A stretch of 64,000 nucleotides of DNA from a virus (taxonomy: Duplodnaviria > Heunggongvirae > Uroviricota > Caudoviricetes), in IMG/VR virus record IMGVR_UViG_2585427970_000001; one strand, written 5' to 3'. Below the pieces are notes generated by a model, which ran no database searches, was not told the DNA's origin, and saw only the letters and a program-made list of their open reading frames with translations. The position numbers and the translations under genes were made by a program. Below are positions 1-10,362 of this stretch, piece after piece. Each line of letters starts with the position of its first letter. Within the stretch, counting starts at the first letter, position 1.

Positions 1-309
1 GCCAGCAAATGCAAGACGAGTTTTATCTTTATCAGAGCCCTCAGATTCAGTACGGTTACCTTTAAATTCGTACTCCCACTGACCAAACCGGTTAACTGGT
101 CATTAATCTGAGTTTCCTTTGAATCCCAGACGAGCATAAGTCTTATCTCCGTCATCACTAGCTGAAGAAGAGAAGTAATGTTCTGCGTTAACTTTGCCGT
201 ACAGATCCAGTTTATTACCGTCTTTGTTGTAGATTTCAGCTGCTTGCGCAGACATTGCCATCAGGACAGATGCTGCAACCGCAGAGAGTGCCACTGTGAT
301 TTTTTTCAT
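1..309 (-). pseudogene. General porin (OmpC/OmpF/NmpC family), 5' part; reading frame interrupted near 75-105; gene continues beyond window start
   Basis: ORF 103..309 encodes signal peptide plus [17 protein letters not shown] porin N-terminus, then hits TAA at 103-105; porin-like sequence (..GQWEYEFKGNRTESEGSDKDKTRLAFAG) resumes in the same frame after a ~30 nt stretch that only reads as porin ([10 protein letters not shown]) in another frame. Confidence 0.6.
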
Positions 310-1051: not shown

Positions 1052-4000
1052 TTAATATACGATCTGGTCTACATGATCACCAAAATCATCATCGTCGTCG
1101 TCATCATCGCCACCATCTACTGCTGGCCAATCAACAAACCAGCCAGCGTAAAGATGCAGCGTTCGGAGAACATCACTTGCGGGAGCATCAAGGGTGTTAA
1201 CGAATCCCATATAGCTATTGGGATTTGCCCCAGCTATGGCTTCAGCGATCATGTCCTCGGTAATGTCACCGAGATAATGCTTAAACGCCCGGAAACTTCT
1301 TCATTATCATCAAATTCGATAATGGCATCTCCGCCTAATGGCGCTGCGATTTTAATCTGCATTATTTAGCTCCTTTGCCACACCTAATAACAGTTCCAGC
1401 AATCCGTCACCATTCATCAGTGATGCGGCAGCGGCCTCTTTGTCATGATACAACTGAAGAGCCATAGAGAATACTTCCGTTGCTGACGTTTTGGAAATAG
1501 TCGGTGATTTCTGCCGAATTTTCCCGGAGTTACTCACTGAGGCTGGCGGGTATACCTTCGCCATATAAATATTACTCAATCGAGATCTGAAGCACCATTC
1601 AGGCTTGCCACGCCCACCGATATTAACGAAAGATGGCTTATCCCCTTCAACATTGGCCTTCAGGAATGACCGGGCTTTCTCTAACAAACCAGGGTTACTG
1701 TACTCAAGATGATGACCCAGCTCGTGCCACAGTGCATTTGCATTTTCATCGTGCAAATCGACAGCAACAACACCATTAAGATTTGCATACGCCCTACCCT
1801 TGTGGTGAATTACCCTTGATAAGGTTGATATTTTCCCGCCGGTCAGGCGATAAATATCAGCAAGTTCCTTGCGCAGGTCTATTCCACCATTCTGTCCAGC
1901 GCGGGCTTCTTCCACTTCTTCCGTGATAAAAGAGTCGGCCCACTCAAGAGCTTTTTCTTCTGATACAGATGAGTTGGCGATCGCACTGTTCATGGCAGAT
2001 AACACTTTCTCGTAGACCGAATCCATACTTCGCTGATTCATTTGCCAGCGTGTCTGCGGGTTATATGAGAATCGCTTAAGTAGTTGGTCAAGCTGCTCAA
2101 GTTCTTCTTCACTGACATACTTTTTAGCCTCACCAATAATGCCAGGGAGAATATTGCCGTTAGGATTAAACGCTCGCGAAAGGAAGAGTTTCAGCGCCCC
2201 ATGCCCTCCGATGCTTCAATATCACCAATAACCGGTTAACAATGGCCGCACTCTTCGGATTAGCATCCGCCAACGCTCTGGCTACGATTTGCAGGACGAT
2301 ACGACCTCACGCTGCATATCAGTCCTGATCTCATCAATAAACTCTGGCGTTATGCCGTGCTCTTTAAGGATATCCCGGCCTTCCGCCGTTACCCCATCGA
2401 TATCACCGACATGTTTATTAACACGACTTTGCAATGCCTTAAATGCCTTCAGAATTCCACGGGAATCATCCGCTTTACTAACGGCCTTCCTGAATGCTGG
2501 CAAGAAGTCTGAGTTAACCTCATTTTGTTGATCGGCCCACTGAATGGAGGCTTCTTTCATCTCGTCCAGAGTCAGATCACCCAACGCGGTATGGTCTGTG
2601 AATATGAGCGACAACCTCTGAACCATTTCTGCCAATGGTGATGCCGAATGCGCCGCGCTAAGGAATGCTTTCACCCTGGTTGGGCGAATGGAAAACCAGT
2701 CAATAGCTGGTGGCATATCTCCGTTTTGTATCGCCTGCGCTATCTCATCAAAGCCATCGCGCCCAAGGGAAGATGCGTGATTTAACAATCCGCGAAGTAA
2801 CGAATTGCTGATACCGAATAATCGGCACCATTTATTCACGTCGGCAACAGGCATTCGAACAAAATGCGCAAGCACTTGTACAAGCTGTTCATCCTGGGGA
2901 TCTGTACGGGAAAGCAGCCTGATCAGATGAATAATGTCTTTGATGCCGGATGCCCGATGTAATAGCAAGCTGGTATATGGAGCAACACCGTTGTAACTAC
3001 CGCCGGAAGCTGACTCGAAAAGACCGCCGGATATCCCTTGCATACCTTCGTTTTCCAGTTCCTGAGATACCTGGCGAAGGATATCCTGTAACGACACATC
3101 GCCGCCGCCAAACATATCCCGAGCGCCTGGCCCTGATGCTGTAACTCATCATTGATACGTTGCGCCATCAATTTAAAGGCGGTGGCCATACGCTTCGCGC
3201 TACGGTTATTCGCGACGATGAACAACGCGAGTGCTTTCACTTCCGGGGCCGTTTCGCTGAACATATCCCCCCTGAGCAATAACATCGGTAATATGCTGGC
3301 CTGACTCCTTCGATTGCCTTACCAGGTCTACCGCATCTTTCAATGCCGCCAGCGCCTTTTTATCGAGGCTATCCGCTGTCTCAATGCCATCAACAATAGT
3401 TGTCACAGCCTGCTTGTGCGCTTCTCCTGATAAAGCCTGCATCTGGACAAAATCATTGGCTGCCGCATTAAGCGCCGTCAGAACATTACGCATATCCGGA
3501 TCAGGTTCTTCTGCAACCATCCTTACTAGGCGCGCATCCTTATATGCCTTGGCAAAGATCGCGTTTTGTATACGGTCTACAAGTTGCCGTGTTGGTCGCC
3601 CATCTTCAGTTACAAGGCCAGCCGCCTGTGTGGCACCAACTTGCGTCATAAATCCGCGAATAAACGCGTCATTACTGCGGCTAAGCAGATCTCCGCTTTC
3701 TGACGGATTAAACAGCGCCATCATCGCCGGTGTTATGCTGTCGGCATCAACAAAAGCCTTTTCACTGGCTGCCATTTCCTGAAGATCAGAAATATTTGAG
3801 TCCTTGGCAAACTGAACGCGGTCAACCTTCGTTAACCGGCGGCGCACCAGTACCGGAGCCGTCATTGATTCAACCTTTTCAGTACGTATGCCGAATTCGG
3901 TCGCATGTTCAATCAGGTACTCCCGATACCGATCCGCATTACCGTCCTGATAGGCTTTAATGATCCCCATGGTACGTCCATTACCTGACTCAACTGCATT

Positions 4001-4336
4001 GTCCTCACCAATTATCGGTGCGCCATGGCTGGATAATCCGGAATCGGTAAGCTGAGCAGGCCGCAAATCTTTGGATATCTGGTTAACCTGAAGAAGGCTG
4101 GATGCGCGGGTCCGGTCGCGCGGCTGAAGTTCCTGGGGATAGTCAGGATTAATTTTCCCATCCAGAGTATTGGATACCAAAATAGCTGAGGCATCGACGA
4201 TATCAAACGCTGTTTTTACCTCGTCTCCCTTCGCTGTCACCACATACGAAACCCGCCCATAATCGGGCAGGTTCTTTAGCAGCTCGATCAGCGTTTCTAT
4301 GCTGGTGGCCATTACCACCTGATCGCTTAAGCTCAT
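1052..4336 (-). pseudogene. Large DdrB-like virion-associated protein gene (about 1090 codons) broken into several reading-frame pieces
   Basis: Collinear minus-strand ORFs 3206..4336, 2282..3115, 1352..2041, 1052..1252 plus a protein-like out-of-frame bridge 3117..3285; position downstream of darA/ddrA as in P1; HELGHH motif in the 1352..2041 piece. Confidence 0.4.
1080..1106 (-). repeat. GAT/GAC trinucleotide tract encoding poly-Asp (DDDDDDDD)
   Basis: atcatcatcgtcgtcgtcatcatcgcc on plus strand; ORF 1052..1252 contains GGDDDDDDDDFGD. Confidence 0.7.
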
Positions 4337-4435
4337 CCCTGTTACGCCTTATCCAATGTGCCGCCCCCTACGCTCCTCATAGTGGGGATATAAGGCACAG
4401 TTTTCCTCCCGGCTATTTTTGCTTAAAATAGTGAC

Positions 4436-5644
4436 ATGAAACAACAGGTGTCATTCAAATTCCGGTTAAAACCAGATGGTCAACAGGAGCGTCAAATGAG
4501 GCGCTTTGCCGGAGCTTGTCGTTTCGTTTTCAACCGTGCTCTGGCGCTTCAGAATGAGAATCATGAGGCCGGTAAAAAATACATCCCTTACACGAAAATG
4601 GCTTCCTGGTTGGTTGAGTGGAAAAAAGACACTGAAACCGAATGGCTTAAAGATTCTCCCTCACAGCCATTGCAACAGTCACTGAAAGACCTTGAGCGGG
4701 CTTACAAAAACTTCTTCCGGAAGCGGGCAGCTTTTCCCCGATTCAAAAAGCGGGGACAGAATGATGCATTCCGCTACCCGCAGGGTGTTAAGCTCGATCA
4801 GGAAAACAGCCGTATTTTTCTGCCGAAACTTGGCTGGATGCGCTACCGGAATAGCCGTCAGGTCACGGGTATTGTGAAAAATGTTACTGTCAGCCAGTCC
4901 TGCGGTAAGTGGTACATCAGTATTCAGACAGAAAGAGAGGTATCCACTCCTGTTCACCCTTCAGCATCAATGGTCGGACTGGATGCTGGCGTGGCTAAAC
5001 TCGCCACGCTGTCAGATGGCACAGTCTTTGAACCTGTAAATAGTTTTCAGAAAAACCAGAAGAAGCTGGCGAGACTTCAGCGACAGTTAAGCCGCAAGGT
5101 CAAATTCAGCAACAACTGGCAGAAGCAGAAACGCAAAATACAGCGACTGCATTCCCGTATCGCAAATATCCGCAGGGACTACCTTCACAAAGTCACAACG
5201 ACCGTCAGCAAAAACCACGCAATGATTGTCATTGAGGATTTGAAGGTTAAATACATGTCAAAGTCAGCGGCGGGAACGATAAGTCATCCGGGTCGCAATG
5301 TCCGGGCAAAATCAGGTTTAAACCGTTCGATACTGGATCAGGGCTGGTATGAAATGCGCCGCCAGCTTGAGTACAAGCAGCTCTGGCGTGGCGGTCAGGT
5401 GCTTGCTGTTCCGCCAGCGTACACAAGCCAGCGTTGCGCGTGCTGTGGTCATACAGCGAAAGAAAATCGCCTGTCACAAAGTAAATTCAGATGCCAGGTA
5501 TGTGGATATACAGCGAACGCCGATGTAAACGGCGCTCGTAACATTTTAGCGGCGGGGCACGCCGTACTTGCCTGTGGAGGGATGGTGCAGTCAGGCCGCC
5601 CGTTGAAGCAGGAACCCACCGAAATGATTCAGGCGACAGCCTGA
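4436..5644 (+). CDS. tnpB: TnpB RNA-guided endonuclease (IS200/IS605 OrfB)
   Basis: 402 aa; RuvC-like motifs [22 protein letters not shown]; zinc finger CACCGH..CQVCGY; N-terminal region typical of TnpB. Confidence 0.9.
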
Positions 5645-5690
5645 ACGTAGCAGGAATCCACGCCCTTCGGGGCGTGGAGGATGTCACGCT
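5540..5690 (+). ncRNA. Putative omega-RNA (reRNA) scaffold overlapping tnpB 3' end and right end
   Basis: Perfect hairpin ccacgccc-ttcg-gggcgtgg at about 5660-5680 just 3' of tnpB stop; position as expected for TnpB guide RNA; boundaries not determinable by eye. Confidence 0.3.
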
Positions 5691-6049
5691 GCCTCTTTAA
5701 TGTTGGCGGCTATCCATGCCGCCGTGTGCTGTTTAACCTGGTCCAGGTCGATGTATGTGCCAACATATTGACTCAAGTCCTGTAACGTACCGATAAATGC
5801 ATCAGTGCTCTGATCGACGAATTTATCAGCCAGGAAATCAGCAACCAGTTTTGGCACACCATCATGTACCGAAGGTTGTTTTTCCTCGCCACTACTGCCG
5901 CCGGACGCGCCGTACCCCATCTGTTGCATGATCTGGTCAATTTCATCGCTGATATCCAGCAACTCCATGCCACTCGCGGTAGCCGCTTTGGACATCAGAG
6001 CATCCAACTTATCGCTGAGGTCCATTAACTCAATAGCTGATAGTGTCAT
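5684..6049 (-). CDS. DdrA-like small protein of dar operon
   Basis: 121 aa ORF immediately downstream of, and overlapping, the darA-like ORF; assignment by position only. Confidence 0.4.
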   Translation of the reverse strand: MTLSAIELMDLSDKLDALMSKAATASGMELLDISDEIDQIMQQMGYGASGGSSGEEKQPSVHDGVPKLVADFLADKFVDQSTDAFIGTLQDLSQYVGTYIDLDQVKQHTAAWIAANIKEAA

Positions 6050-7965
6050 GCCGCTACCCCCGCTTTCTGGATTGCTACCAGCAGATCAGCCAGGTGGCGA
6101 GCAGCACCGTTAACCAGCTCTTCGTTTTCCTCAAAACGTCCGGCAGCCTGAAGGGCAGCAATCGCTTCCCGGACATTGCCCCGGGCGTTACGGATCTCCG
6201 CCATGTCAGTGCTTTGCATATCCATCACGCTATTGAGATATTCAATGGCTTTATTAGCCTCTGCATCTGCTTCGCTAACCGTTTCATCAGGCTGTGCCGG
6301 GACCGGTTCTGGTTGAGTAATCTCACCGACTTCGGCCTGCAATGCATTGATCATGCTCTGCACCATTTTCTCGATGCCAGCGCCCCCAGGAAACGCAATA
6401 TTGGGGAAAGTTTTTTGAAACTGAGTTTTCAGCATTACGCGGAACTCGTCTGGTGAGCTGGTGGCCAGCTCCAGAGCTTTTTGTGCATATTTGCCAAACG
6501 GACCATTAGTAAGTGTCTTCGCCAGGAAGTCGAAAGAATCCTCGCGAGGCAATAACTTCAGGTCGTACTCACTCATTTGCTGATCAGAAAGCGGGGTATC
6601 GTAAGTAACAATGCCGTAGCGTGCATATTCATAATACGGGTCACCTTCATCAGGGCGCGGCAGAATTGCTTTGTTACCTTCAGGTATTGCGCCAGGGGCC
6701 GCCGGACGCATTTGCAGGGCATATCGATATGCACCTACAGAGACTTCTGGTTCAGGCAAAGAGCTACCGGTATCCTCCGCTGATTCAGGTTCGACGTTTT
6801 CCGGTTTATGTTCTTCTGGTTGGACCAGATATTCCGATACATTACCCGCTTTATAGGCTTTAAACAGCTTGCCGATCGCATCTGCCATGTCCACACCCTG
6901 TATGGATTTAGCCTTGATCATGTACACGCTGCCATCCGAATCGGTTAACTGGATATACCCTTCGCCGTCCTCAATGAATTGCTTCATTGATGCACCATTA
7001 CTGAGCGTCACTTCCCCGTTCATATGCATACGATTTTTGATACTGGCAAGGCGATCCGTCAGCGCGCGAGAGTACCCACCAGTCATCCCCGCAGGAGCAA
7101 TGGTATCGCGCCCACCAGTGCGATTGAGCTGATCAATCTCCGTCTGCAAACGCTCATTCTCTTCATAAAGAGAATCCGCTTCCGATGCAACAGCGTTAAT
7201 TTTCTGCTCCAGATCTGCCTTCTGCCCTTCTACCGCTGCCACCTGATCCGCGAGGTCGCTCATGGCATCCTCTTTCTGGTCACTGTCAGCCTGTAGTTGG
7301 GTTATTTCATCAACAAGGGCTTTTTTCTTCTTCTGCGCACGCTGGAATTTTGCCGAGTTTTTCTCTGCAAGGTTGGCAAGTTTCATGGTGACCTGCGCCA
7401 GCGTCATATCACGTCCACTCATCGGAGCAACGGTGTGAGTAACGTCTTTTTTATTCAGTAAGAACTGGAAAGCAACCAGCGTATCGCTATTGGTGATCCG
7501 GTTTTCCGCTGTCGGGCTATGAAACAGAATGCTGATAGTCTGACCATCACTGAGCGGAATAATGGCTGGCAGGACCGGCAGCCCGTTAACGTTACGTGCC
7601 CGACCAATTTCAGCGCCGCCGATCGCGCGCGCGCCGCTCTGGGCCACATCGCCCGTTTTATCACTCCCCGCAGAGATTCCGGTACCATTCAGCTTCTGGT
7701 TCAATGCCCGGACAAATGCCTGCATGGTCCGGTGTAACTGCAAACGAGTAGAACTAATCGCCTCCAGTAAATCCGTAGCACACCAGTGGATCGGCGTGTC
7801 ATAGAAGAACGTAGCCTCGATTTCCTCCAGGGTGTTGGATTCCGTCATCAGATAGCGGTCCTCACCGGCCATTAATGCGCGATATTCATCATCAGTCACT
7901 GGCGGGGGAAGCGCGTCAAGCCCAGGTTTGATCGTCACCCCTTTATTGATATTGAACTGTTCCAT
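6046..7965 (-). CDS. darA: DarA-like antirestriction / head internal protein
   Basis: 639 aa; coiled-coil central region; preceded by an ORF sharing a KNSAKFQ block (hdf-like), matching the P1 hdf-darA arrangement. Confidence 0.55.
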   Translation of the reverse strand: MEQFNINKGVTIKPGLDALPPPVTDDEYRALMAGEDRYLMTESNTLEEIEATFFYDTPIHWCATDLLEAISSTRLQLHRTMQAFVRALNQKLNGTGISAGSDKTGDVAQSGARAIGGAEIGRARNVNGLPVLPAIIPLSDGQTISILFHSPTAENRITNSDTLVAFQFLLNKKDVTHTVAPMSGRDMTLAQVTMKLANLAEKNSAKFQRAQKKKKALVDEITQLQADSDQKEDAMSDLADQVAAVEGQKADLEQKINAVASEADSLYEENERLQTEIDQLNRTGGRDTIAPAGMTGGYSRALTDRLASIKNRMHMNGEVTLSNGASMKQFIEDGEGYIQLTDSDGSVYMIKAKSIQGVDMADAIGKLFKAYKAGNVSEYLVQPEEHKPENVEPESAEDTGSSLPEPEVSVGAYRYALQMRPAAPGAIPEGNKAILPRPDEGDPYYEYARYGIVTYDTPLSDQQMSEYDLKLLPREDSFDFLAKTLTNGPFGKYAQKALELATSSPDEFRVMLKTQFQKTFPNIAFPGGAGIEKMVQSMINALQAEVGEITQPEPVPAQPDETVSEADAEANKAIEYLNSVMDMQSTDMAEIRNARGNVREAIAALQAAGRFEENEELVNGAARHLADLLVAIQKAGVAA

Positions 7966-7966
7966 G

Positions 7967-8578
7967 TTAATTTCCTGCTTTCAGTTGCTTAAGACGGCGT
8001 TTGAGTTCGCCATTTCGGGCCTTTTCGTTATTGAGTCGGCCTGTCTCCTTATCCAGCTTCGCCCGCAAATCAGTGATCTGCTGTTGATTGAAAGACACCG
8101 AGTTCTGCGCTGATTTATAAGCGGCAACCACCTGAACATTCCGCTGTTTTGCCTCTTGCAGGCGCTGAAAGTTGGATTTTACTGCCGGTTTCTTGTCTAC
8201 CGGATTGGCAACACGTTTCGCTTTGGCGATCAGTGATTTCTGGAATTTTGCGGAGTTTTTGCGGGCCGCTTGCCCCATGACGGTACCAAGCGTCTTGATA
8301 TCCGGCGACTGAGCGTTAGGAATAGCTTTTCCATTCAGCTTCACAGACGATATATCGCCAGTATCGTTTACCTGTATGGCAAGAATTTGTCCATCGTTAA
8401 GAACCAGCTTTGCGGTTTTAACTTTAACGCCATCTTTCGTTGTTGCGCGGTTGCTGGAGTCAACCTCAATTACCGTAACACCGGTTTTATTGATCGCCGC
8501 GATAAGGGATTTCAGCCCCTTTTCATTAACCTGGTCAAAATCGACCGTTGCATACTTATTTTTCGTCATCTGACACAT
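7967..8578 (-). CDS. hdf: Hdf-like protein (homolog of DarA fragment)
   Basis: 203 aa; shares sequence block (..KNSAKFQ..) with the downstream DarA-like protein. Confidence 0.5.
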   Translation of the reverse strand: MCQMTKNKYATVDFDQVNEKGLKSLIAAINKTGVTVIEVDSSNRATTKDGVKVKTAKLVLNDGQILAIQVNDTGDISSVKLNGKAIPNAQSPDIKTLGTVMGQAARKNSAKFQKSLIAKAKRVANPVDKKPAVKSNFQRLQEAKQRNVQVVAAYKSAQNSVSFNQQQITDLRAKLDKETGRLNNEKARNGELKRRLKQLKAGN

Positions 8579-8999
8579 CCTGTGCGAGATTTATTACGTA
8601 ACTTCTGCGGATTTGCTGAGTAACAGGGAAAATCCGATACAACGGGTTAATGAACGAGTCGCCATGCGTAACCATGACGTTGAAATGCCACAGTCGCTCT
8701 CCTTTACCCATATATTCAGTGGGTATGTACAACCATTCACTGTTTTCGCCCTGTTCAGCCGACGTCAAACAACGTTGTTCGCCTTCAATCACTGTCGTCG
8801 GCTTCTGAACATCGCGGATCCAATATCTGACCGTTGCGCCGCGCAAAAACGGGAATTTAGACCGGTATTTGAACGGCACCCGGATGAAACCCGGTTTAAT
8901 TTCCACATCACCAAGTTCTAAATGCGTGATGTCCTTGCGTTTTAGCAAATAGCGATCGGCTAAGGCTAACGCAAGAACGCATACACCCCAGCCAATCAT
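8556..8999 (-). CDS. Hypothetical protein with N-terminal hydrophobic segment (possible LydB-like lysis regulator)
   Basis: 147 aa ORF overlapping stop of upstream holin-like gene; assignment by position. Confidence 0.3.
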   Translation of the reverse strand: MIGWGVCVLALALADRYLLKRKDITHLELGDVEIKPGFIRVPFKYRSKFPFLRGATVRYWIRDVQKPTTVIEGEQRCLTSAEQGENSEWLYIPTEYMGKGERLWHFNVMVTHGDSFINPLYRIFPVTQQIRRSYVINLAQDVSDDEK

Positions 9000-9325
9000 T
9001 TCCCGCCTCCCTTTTTCACCAAACTTGTAAGAACATTCAGAATGCTATCGATATTCACTCGTTTCATCCCTGAAATCACCTCATGACCGTTATTGCTGGC
9101 TATCGTTACCATTAAGTACGTAATTGATAACTCCCAGCCCTCGTGTTGCCCCAATAGGTACGCCACCGCGCCAGCTGTCACTGCAACAAAGATCTCCGTA
9201 ACCAATCCCAACAAATTGCCAGACTGGCGACCGTCTCGGACATCCATCAGGAACGTGCCTATCCCACCAATTACTGAAAGCAGGAGCGCAATAGCAACTG
9301 GAGCTAATTCCTGTGTGTCAAGCAC
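8996..9325 (-). CDS. Holin-like small membrane protein (LydA-like)
   Basis: 109 aa, 2-3 predicted hydrophobic helices, charged C-terminus KKGGGK. Confidence 0.5.
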   Translation of the reverse strand: MLDTQELAPVAIALLLSVIGGIGTFLMDVRDGRQSGNLLGLVTEIFVAVTAGAVAYLLGQHEGWELSITYLMVTIASNNGHEVISGMKRVNIDSILNVLTSLVKKGGGK

Positions 9326-9392
9326 AAGTTCCCTCCTACGTTGTCAGGAGGTAATGGTATGCAAAGTAACTTCTCAACCGGTCATTTGTTGC

Positions 9393-9801: not shown

Positions 9802-10362
9802 ATGCTAATAGGCTATATACGCGTATCAACAAATGAACAAAACACTGCTTTACAACGAAATGCCCTTGAAAGCGCAGGATGTGAGCTAATTTTTGAGGAC
9901 AAGGCGAGCGGCAAAAAGGCTGAGCGCCCTGGGTTAAAAAAGGTACTCCGTATGCTTTCCAGAGGTGATACCCTGGTCGTATGGAAGTTAGACCGTCTTG
10001 GGCGCAGCATGCGTCACTTAGTTGTGCTGGTGGAAGAGCTGCGTGACAGAGGCATTAACTTCCGGAGTCTCACTGACTCCATCGACACCAGTACACCAAT
10101 GGGGCGCTTTTTCTTTCACGTAATGGGGGCGCTGGCAGAAATGGAACGTGAGCTTATCGTTGAACGTACACGCGCTGGACTTGATGCAGCTCGCGCAGAA
10201 GGTCGTATAGGTGGGCGTCGACCTAAATACCAAGAAGAAACATGGCAGCAAATGCGGCGATTGCTGGAGAAGGGCATCCCCCGTAAGCAGGTTGCAATCA
10301 TCTATGATGTGGCTGTTTCCACGCTTTATAAGAAGTTTCCGGCGTCATCCTTTCAATCCTAA
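9802..10362 (+). CDS. cin: Serine recombinase DNA invertase (Cin/Gin/Pin/Hin family)
   Basis: MLIGYIRVSTNEQNTALQRNAL..DTLVVWKLDRLGRSMRHL..GRFFFHVMGALAEMERELIVERT; near-identical motif pattern to Gin/Cin. Confidence 0.9.
   Translation: MLIGYIRVSTNEQNTALQRNALESAGCELIFEDKASGKKAERPGLKKVLRMLSRGDTLVVWKLDRLGRSMRHLVVLVEELRDRGINFRSLTDSIDTSTPMGRFFFHVMGALAEMERELIVERTRAGLDAARAEGRIGGRRPKYQEETWQQMRRLLEKGIPRKQVAIIYDVAVSTLYKKFPASSFQS

Follow-up and report, generated by a model that had tools for sequence, protein, structure and literature searches.

A gene for a TnpB-family protein at the junction of ddrA and ddrB in a P1-like phage-plasmid raises two questions: what kind of element brought it there, and how is such an element kept when it has no transposase gene of its own? 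We addressed them in a 64,000-nt stretch of DNA from the IMG/VR virus record IMGVR_UViG_2585427970_000001, hereafter the window, to the whole of which all positions refer; it represents a P1-like phage-plasmid with 99.9% identity to RCS47 over 4300-5720 and 99.0% over 1054-9376. By sequence comparison, the insertion is a non-autonomous member of the insertion sequence (IS) family IS200/IS605 with the IS1341-type, TnpB-only layout, and its nearest relative is the insQ element of E. coli; we have hardly any doubt about this identity or about the anatomy set out below. The insertion is already labelled insQ or TnpB in public records and the mechanism of its family is established; it is thus an ordinary element and not a new one. 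The complete account that we favor, which joins to identity and anatomy a presumptive targeting of the empty site, the loss of mobility by TnpA and persistence through inheritance and recombination, we consider probable as a whole.

Ends, gene content and affinities of the insertion

Comparison with the empty sites of P1 and P7 set both ends of the element, as the preliminary description of this DNA had proposed. The junctions are unambiguous on either side: the inserted DNA comprises 1,335 bp (4353..5687), and no bases are duplicated. In P1 and P7 the empty site reads ...catcc(c/g)tgttacgccTTAT/gctgcctctttaatgt..., i.e. ...cgccTTAT/gctgcc... (the slash after TTAT marking the point of insertion), and the occupied site of the window reads ...cgccTTAT-(ccaatgtgcc ... 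ggaggatgtcac)-gctgcctcttta..., with the element in parentheses. Thus, TTAT/GCTGCC has become TTAT-IS-GCTGCC, with the element inserted 3' of TTAT, as is characteristic of the IS200/IS605 family, whose members insert next to a fixed tetra- or pentanucleotide, on its 3' side, and have neither terminal inverted repeats nor a target-site duplication. The insertion recognized earlier is hence real, and its limits need correction from 4337-5690 to those given above, with 4337-4352 being native P1 intergenic bases outside the element. It also does not lie strictly between the two genes, as had been thought: the insertion point is within the last sense codon of ddrA, and the element is antisense to both flanking genes.

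The assignment of the 402-aa open reading frame (ORF) on the plus strand to TnpB, between the minus-strand ddrA and ddrB, was upheld by all profile searches. 1) The product matches the Pfam domains HTH_OrfB_IS605 (PF12323) at residues 1-48, OrfB_IS605 (PF01385) at 162-277 and Cas12f1-like_TNB (PF07282) at 304-370, each above its gathering score. 2) It scores 393 bits against the NCBIfam model guided_TnpB, whose cut-off is 100. 3) Its best match among natural proteins of known structure is ISDra2 TnpB (8H1J, 8BF8/8EXA; E = 2.8e-52), with which it shares the domain order, the D/E/D triad of the RuvC fold and the zinc ribbon. 4) Residues D183, E267 and D363, in the motifs GLDAGV (from 181), IEDLKV (266) and NADVNG (361), align with the catalytic D191, E278 and D361 of ISDra2. 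5) The motifs CACCG (334) and CQVCG (353) provide C334, C337, C353 and C356 of a four-cysteine CxxC...CxxC zinc ribbon. The RuvC-like residues and zinc finger had been read as intact from the sequence, and the alignment agrees, with no catalytic residue mutated. A nuclease-dead, TnpB-derived regulator of the TldR type is excluded by the intact RuvC triad.

The gene is also well kept. Seven haplotypes occupy the ddrA site, differing at no more than 53 of the 1,335 positions, and each retains the 402-aa ORF and has all catalytic and zinc residues in place. Across them the pairwise proportion of synonymous differences in tnpB (pS) reaches 0.09, and the ratio of nonsynonymous to synonymous differences (pN/pS) is 0.09-0.25 wherever synonymous differences exist. 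By these comparisons, tnpB is an undamaged gene with a complete catalytic site that evolves under purifying selection. We found no convincing promoter or ribosome-binding site upstream of it; promoter-like and terminator-like matches in a scan of 4200-5900 did not exceed the counts in shuffled sequence, and consequently no promoter can be claimed for either tnpB or ddrB. Pieces of tnpB were also encountered in other phages: the filamentous phage If1 (U02303.1/NC_001954.1) carries one of 647 nt, 95.8% identical and annotated as ORF348/hypothetical, and the Aeromonas jumbo phage AP1 (MT713136.1) one of 291 nt, 96.6% identical.

The affinities of the element are clearest with the insQ copies of E. 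coli (near ydcO, near yfeD and elsewhere), which are ~95% identical in DNA over 4452-5686 and 92-93% identical in TnpB, and have the same right-end scaffold and TTAY target. They are annotated as IS609-type. The chromosomal copies differ in possessing a divergent, often truncated tnpA between the left end and tnpB, a TCAA terminus and a canonical left-end hairpin, whereas the left end of the P1-borne element has no megablast-level match to chromosomal insQ. Among phage-plasmids, RCS47 (FO818745), SJ46 (KU760857) and vB_EcoM-813R1 carry the ORF at the same position, in an insertion with the same site, junctions and 1,335-bp length as that of the window. Against the 1,421-bp query 4300-5720, SJ46 is 96.2% identical and RCS47 99.9%. 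RCS47 annotates the ORF as 'insQ, transposase IS605', and many P1-like plasmid records label it 'RNA-guided endonuclease InsQ/TnpB family protein'.

This recurrence at one position might be taken to mean that the ORF is a core gene of P1-like phages and no insertion at all, a reading that we discount almost entirely and that the empty sites refute. In P1, P7 and most relatives ddrA and ddrB are contiguous and 12 nt apart: among E. coli complete genomes the junction is uninterrupted in 390 of the 464 records holding the locus, and 67 IMG/VR contigs are likewise empty. Further, the protein resembles not only the chromosomal insQ products, at the 92-93% already mentioned, but also the TnpB proteins of Enterobacterales, Burkholderiales and other bacteria, at 60-86% identity. 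The preliminary description had named a core gene at this position, as well as mutated catalytic residues, as findings that would overturn it; neither was found.

The putative omega-RNA and its presumptive target

TnpB systems characterized to date take as guide the segment of ~16 nt that follows the right end, and their target-adjacent motif (TAM) is the target motif of the transposon, as established for ISDra2 (PMC13565253). By likeness to the omega-RNA of ISDra2, also termed right-end element RNA (reRNA), a guide RNA would be expected to comprise the tnpB 3' end together with the right end and the ~16-nt flank. ISDra2 differs in using a TTGAT TAM and carrying tnpA, whereas the P1-borne element would use TTAT/TTAC and has no tnpA.

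The 3' region of the element shows conserved structure of the kind anticipated. The perfect hairpin ccacgccc-ttcg-gggcgtgg, noticed earlier at the boundary where a scaffold is to be expected, occupies 5658-5677 and extends to a 9-bp stem, being perfect over 5657-5678; when the stretch was compared with 200 shuffles, only 1 of them folded as well (z = -3.4). RNAalifold applied to the last 230 nt of 45 relatives yielded 36 consensus pairs, 23 of which display compensatory changes. This covarying 3' structure matches what is expected of an omega-RNA scaffold, and we accordingly list it as putative (Table 1). In Rfam no family reached its gathering score; below threshold there are RAGATH-18 (5571-5614), HgcC (5577-5700) and sot0042 (5517-5678), families that we take to overlap what are now termed omega-RNAs. 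The title of PMC12558985 points to the same overlap for sot RNAs.

Two observations concern the vicinity of the terminal hairpin. In the SJ46-type haplotype (L004, 4358-4377, corresponding to 5658-5677 of the window) the loop is CGAA, the reverse complement of TTCG, and an A·C mismatch breaks one pair of the stem, with the loop looking like an inversion within the palindrome. A terminator-like hairpin at 5704-5724 (+), TGGCGGC...GCCGCCG followed by TGTGCTGTTT, lies antisense within ddrA and starts exactly one base past the presumptive guide; it could set the 3' end of an omega-RNA, and terminator-like sites around it are no commoner than in shuffles.

The 16 nt beyond the right end had been proposed as the presumptive guide. 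Preceded by TTAT, the segment GCTGCCTCTTTAATGT is exactly the empty ddrA/ddrB junction of P1, of P7 and of 56 of the 67 empty IMG/VR loci. In the window neither the 16-mer nor its prefixes down to 10 nt have any match apart from that at 5688. By analogy with the mechanism of TnpB, we therefore propose the following role for this segment: TnpB would bind an omega-RNA made from ~5502-5687 and the flanking 16 nt (5688-5703), and the complex would recognize TTAT followed by GCTGCCTCTTTAATGT, which is to say the uninterrupted junction of insertion-free relatives. The element's own copy would be protected because the insertion splits the TAM from the target. An active nuclease and omega-RNA directed at the empty site is, on the sequence evidence, an even proposition.

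Table 1. Coordinates of the element, its predicted RNA parts and the flanking genes in the window
Feature	Positions	Strand	Basis or remark
TTAT, target motif directly 5' of the left end, presumptive TAM	4349..4352	+	P1/P7 empty sites
Left end, 83 bp, with imperfect hairpin and conserved motif GGGGATATAAGGC; abuts the tnpB start codon	4353..4435	+	
Left-end hairpin	outer stem 4357-4362/4394-4399; inner stem 4365-4371/4382-4387	+	sequence, fold
tnpB (insQ-type) coding sequence, 402 aa	4436..5644	+	Pfam, NCBIfam, structure homology
Putative omega-RNA scaffold, minimum extent supported by covariation	5502..5687	+	
Scaffold stems	5502-5505/5616-5619; 5518-5522/5530-5534; 5583-5586/5595-5598	+	RNAalifold
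Scaffold stem	5549-5554/5560-5565	+	14-19 double changes
Scaffold stem-loop across the tnpB stop codon	5624-5648	+	RNAalifold consensus
Terminal scaffold hairpin	5657-5665/5670-5678	+	in covarying consensus
Right-end terminus GGAGGATGTCAC; last four bases at the position of the TnpA cleavage motif	5676..5687	+	
GCTGCCTCTTTAATGT, presumptive 16-nt omega-RNA guide segment (native ddrA 3' end read antisense)	5688..5703	+	
ddrA, 121 aa	5684..6049	-	last sense codon GCG, stop TGA (P1: GCA, TAA)
ddrB 5' part, 376-aa ORF with ddrB-ParB domain	3206..4336	-	
darA, further upstream	6046-7965	-	

Transposition signals, carriage and persistence

The subterminal hairpins of IS200/IS605 elements, expected to be alike at the two ends, are the binding sites of TnpA. 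In the family model, the single-strand 'peel and paste' transposition of IS608 from H. pylori, the element has such hairpins, inserts 3' of TTAC without duplication and ends in TCAA. The P1-borne copy resembles IS608 in its insertion 3' of a tetranucleotide without duplication, and differs from it by TCAC at the right end and by dissimilar left and right hairpins. It lacks tnpA: the left terminus is followed by the tnpB start codon after only 83 bp, and a tblastn search of the 64-kb window with an E. coli IS200/IS605 TnpA reached no better than E = 7, in keeping with the earlier view of the element as non-autonomous.

To judge what is ancestral we used 80 relatives recovered from one genome per species, with TnpB 60-93% identical and chiefly belonging to Enterobacterales and Burkholderiales. 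In these relatives the element closes with GGAGGATGTCAA or a near-identical variant, and the sequences diverge fully beyond it. All 43 aligned relatives end in TCAA; the window, SJ46 and all other copies at the ddrA site have TCAC, and the P1-borne copies thus lack the cleavage motif of the family. The left flank is TTAT in 10 and TTAC in 6 of the 16 relatives with a mapped left end. TTAT and TCAA are reported as common left-end and right-end cleavage motifs, respectively, of TnpB-bearing elements (PMC9956272). The left end of the relatives is CCnGTGCGCCGTAAAnCCCCGTCC-TTCA-GGGCGGGGATATAAGGC, a hairpin similar to their own right-end hairpin, and the family consensus of its inner part is CCCCGTCC-TTCA-GGGCGGGG. 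The P1-borne copies retain the outer part and GGGGATATAAGGC, and in place of the inner hairpin have CCCC(T)AC-10 nt-GTGGGG, a weak stem, bulged and closed by a loop of 10 nt, that resembles neither the consensus nor their own right-end hairpin. In most relatives from Enterobacterales a divergent tnpA lies between left end and tnpB, and both of the chromosomal tnpA genes that we inspected in E. coli are truncated. Where relatives bear tnpA, the motif GGGGATATAAGGC precedes tnpB by ~465 nt; the distance is ~50 nt in the window and in elements of Citrobacter (L082) and Kluyvera (L091), which have the same tnpA-less layout and a similar short leader, ...TTTAAAATA(A/G)TG(G/A)C-ATG. TCAC looks like a derived single-base change that would argue against current mobility, not against ancestry, and excision and movement by TnpA have probably been lost.

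The distribution of the element is equally restricted. Among E. coli complete genomes its left end occurs at 95% identity or more in 64 records; only 2 of the 161 places matched are chromosomal, and the records listed are all plasmids of ~95-154 kb. IMG/VR holds 15 contigs with the occupied right junction beside the 67 empty ones. Carriers hence make up ~14-18% of the P1-like genomes sampled, the remainder having the empty site. All 12 copies with both ends (the window, RCS47, SJ46 and nine IMG/VR contigs) are 1,335 bp long with identical junctions. Among the 40 full-length matches listed from PLSDB, the plasmids are of ~92-187 kb, mostly 92-102 kb, and about one quarter have ddrA under the match. 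This combination of left and right ends appears to be confined to a single site. A literature search found no paper on this insertion, on the TAM or activity of insQ, or on TnpB in P1-like phage-plasmids.

Within the phage-plasmid population, occupied and empty flanks are equally diverse at every distance (2.2% and 2.3%, respectively, over the first 250 bp to the right), and haplotypes of the 400-bp right flank are common to occupied and empty alleles. Where copies of the insertion are near-identical (0-3 differences), the flanks begin to differ 117-703 bp from its ends. The TAM and target are altered in 11 of the 67 empty IMG/VR alleles (L161-L171): G1T in 5 loci, T11C in 4, C2T in 1, and TTAC with two mismatches in one. 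G1T, T11C and C2T each alter a C-terminal residue of DdrA. Such changes might reflect escape, but variants in the target are not denser in empty alleles than background variable sites, and thus leave no escape signature. The pattern is that of a freely recombining family in which presence and absence of the insertion have long been polymorphic, and it neither requires nor excludes stimulation by TnpB.

As mobility by TnpA is probably gone, persistence and spread would depend on vertical inheritance and homologous recombination. TnpB may promote the latter by cutting empty alleles when such genomes meet through co-residence or superinfection: an insertion-free relative entering the same cell would be cleaved, and then either the element would be copied in by recombination or the competitor would be lost. 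Such a process has been termed 'transposon non-restorative homing', and an IS605 insertion is reported to have spread through a plasmid population independently of TnpA and in dependence on TnpB; the idea that elements may home into co-infecting phages or plasmids has likewise been put forward (PMC13565253). The same work recalls the free-standing and intron-borne homing endonucleases of T-even phages (SegF, SegB and I-TevI), selfish nuclease genes that lie between conserved phage genes and cut the empty allele of a co-infecting relative. Their likeness to the present case is one of mechanism and by analogy only; unlike them, TnpB would recognize its target through RNA, and self would be marked by an insertion that parts the TAM and the target. 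A real contribution of homing to the spread of the element we hold to be possible and on the whole doubtful. The same reserve applies to the broader idea of a module without any TnpA-dependent mobility surviving among P1-like phage-plasmids as an RNA-guided homing element or gene drive.

Other explanations of its persistence draw on the same observations. The element might still move in trans, served by the TnpA of IS200/IS605 copies on the host chromosome, given that related insQ elements are present in 5,015 of 5,426 E. coli genomes, that many relatives have a divergent tnpA beside tnpB and that those of Citrobacter and Kluyvera share its tnpA-less layout. We regard this as very improbable: its left end is found in 64 E. 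coli records, those listed being all plasmids, and at only two chromosomal places of 161; all twelve full-length copies have the same junctions; the right end is TCAC against the TCAA of 43 relatives; the left-end hairpin departs from both the right-end hairpin and the family consensus; and the two chromosomal tnpA genes inspected in E. coli are truncated. The loss of these signals, with an absent tnpA, an atypical right-end motif and a degenerate left-end hairpin, would also fit an inert fossil, i.e. an immobile, hitchhiking remnant of one old insertion shuffled by recombination, whose TnpB and omega-RNA are unmade or ineffective. A tnpB without a convincing upstream promoter or ribosome-binding site, flank haplotypes common to occupied and empty alleles, as expected of a recombining mosaic, and target variants not enriched over background are all compatible with such a remnant. 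A functionless gene should, however, show stops or frameshifts in some copies, and the seven haplotypes, at pS of up to 0.09 and pN/pS of ~0.2, all have the full ORF and all key residues, with the scaffold stems also retained; a fossil is in our estimate unlikely.

Purifying selection on tnpB in an element that seems immobilised could instead point to domestication, the nuclease being retained for the benefit of the phage, either by excluding insertion-free P1-like competitors or by antisense tuning of ddrA/ddrB expression. The guide does match a sequence present only in close competitors, the omega-RNA guide and any read-through would run antisense to ddrA at its 3' end, and the killing of competitors by homing endonucleases has been discussed (PMC13565253). 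Carriage by only ~14-18% of genomes is nevertheless unlike that of a strongly beneficial trait, and the target has no escape signature; domestication therefore seems to us decidedly unlikely.

Our favored account of a maintained nuclease in an element that has probably lost TnpA mobility has to be set against several observations that weigh on the other side. The signal of purifying selection could have come by gene conversion from the chromosomal insQ copies, which are ~95% identical. Differences in the SJ46 insertion are clustered, in the manner of gene-conversion patches. The window is distinguished from the other copies by two private substitutions at 4719 and 4723 (Q95R and N96K relative to RCS47; Q95/N96 also in SJ46), as well as by a frameshifted ddrB unlike all others, and R95/K96 is also what a chromosomal insQ copy of E. 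coli has (L081), which suggests a short patch of gene conversion between chromosomal and phage-borne copies. Since some differences among copies at the site look like patches from other insQ alleles, part of the selection signal may have been acquired elsewhere. The TAM is read from insertion sites alone, and we infer the block of TnpA from TCAC and the altered left-end hairpin. With regard to homing, the insertion, when all copies are taken together, is at least as diverse (up to 4%) as its flanks, and the dip in diversity over the insertion was seen in a group picked by insertion similarity and is hence subject to ascertainment bias. From the population data, homing and ordinary recombination within a mosaic phage family are not distinguishable.

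The locus adds nothing to annotation, the gene being labelled insQ/TnpB already. As a test system it is of modest value, with a single site, natural presence and absence among P1-like phage-plasmids and a tractable host; a presumptive guide that points at the empty allele of relatives, combined with decayed transposase signals, could be used to test TnpA-independent homing or exclusion of competitors by TnpB. What appears worth retaining are the exact ends, the silent insertion in the last codon of ddrA, the signs of lost mobility beside a maintained nuclease, and the match of the presumptive guide to the empty allele.

The ddrA-ddrB operon and neighboring observations

The insertion also illustrates how the end of a gene in an anti-restriction operon can be interrupted with both proteins left unaltered. 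The end of ddrA is GCA-GCA-TAA in P1 and GCA-GC/G-TGA in the window, where G-TGA is the reverse complement of the last four bases of the element and 5684-5686 (tca) forms the TGA stop. The right end of the element supplies the new stop, and DdrA is thus unchanged, still ending in ...IKEAA at 121 aa. On the other side, the 16 nt 5' of the ddrB start codon (4337-4352) are native and untouched, and ddrB now begins 1,347 nt downstream of the ddrA stop, as against 12 nt in P1 and P7. The insertion may, as the preliminary description suggested, influence the expression of ddrB. A promoter-like site inside the element and facing ddrB (4454-4425 on the minus strand; ATGACA, 18 nt, TATTTT, 9/12) could in principle drive ddrB, and is not above chance expectation.

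In the window ddrB is broken into ORFs of 376, 277 and 229 aa. Relative to RCS47 there are six single-base indels, at 1270, 2196, 2231, 2293, 3117 and 3267, and none in 3268-9376; the stretch concerned covers ddrB and its downstream neighbor, five of the six fall within ddrB, and most are in short runs of C or G. They could be sequencing errors of the long-read homopolymer type or true decay to a pseudogene. We rejected the insertion as the cause of such decay: ddrB is full-length (991-995 aa) in all ten of the other insertion-bearing loci with enough sequence, which shows the insertion to be compatible with retention of ddrB, and it is full-length in 44 of 46 empty loci.

Two further features of the window are unconnected with the insertion. 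A cin-type invertase is encoded by an intact 186-aa ORF at 9802-10362 (+), and in RCS47 it is annotated as two pseudogene parts (L001, 11514-12054). Outside the part aligned with RCS47, which begins at 1054, a 68-aa ORF at 103-309 (-) corresponds to the N-terminal part of the porins OmpC, PhoE and OmpF, with the signal peptide and the first strands; its NCBIfam match (E = 6e-23) is far below the full-length cut-off, and it looks like a fragment of a porin gene.

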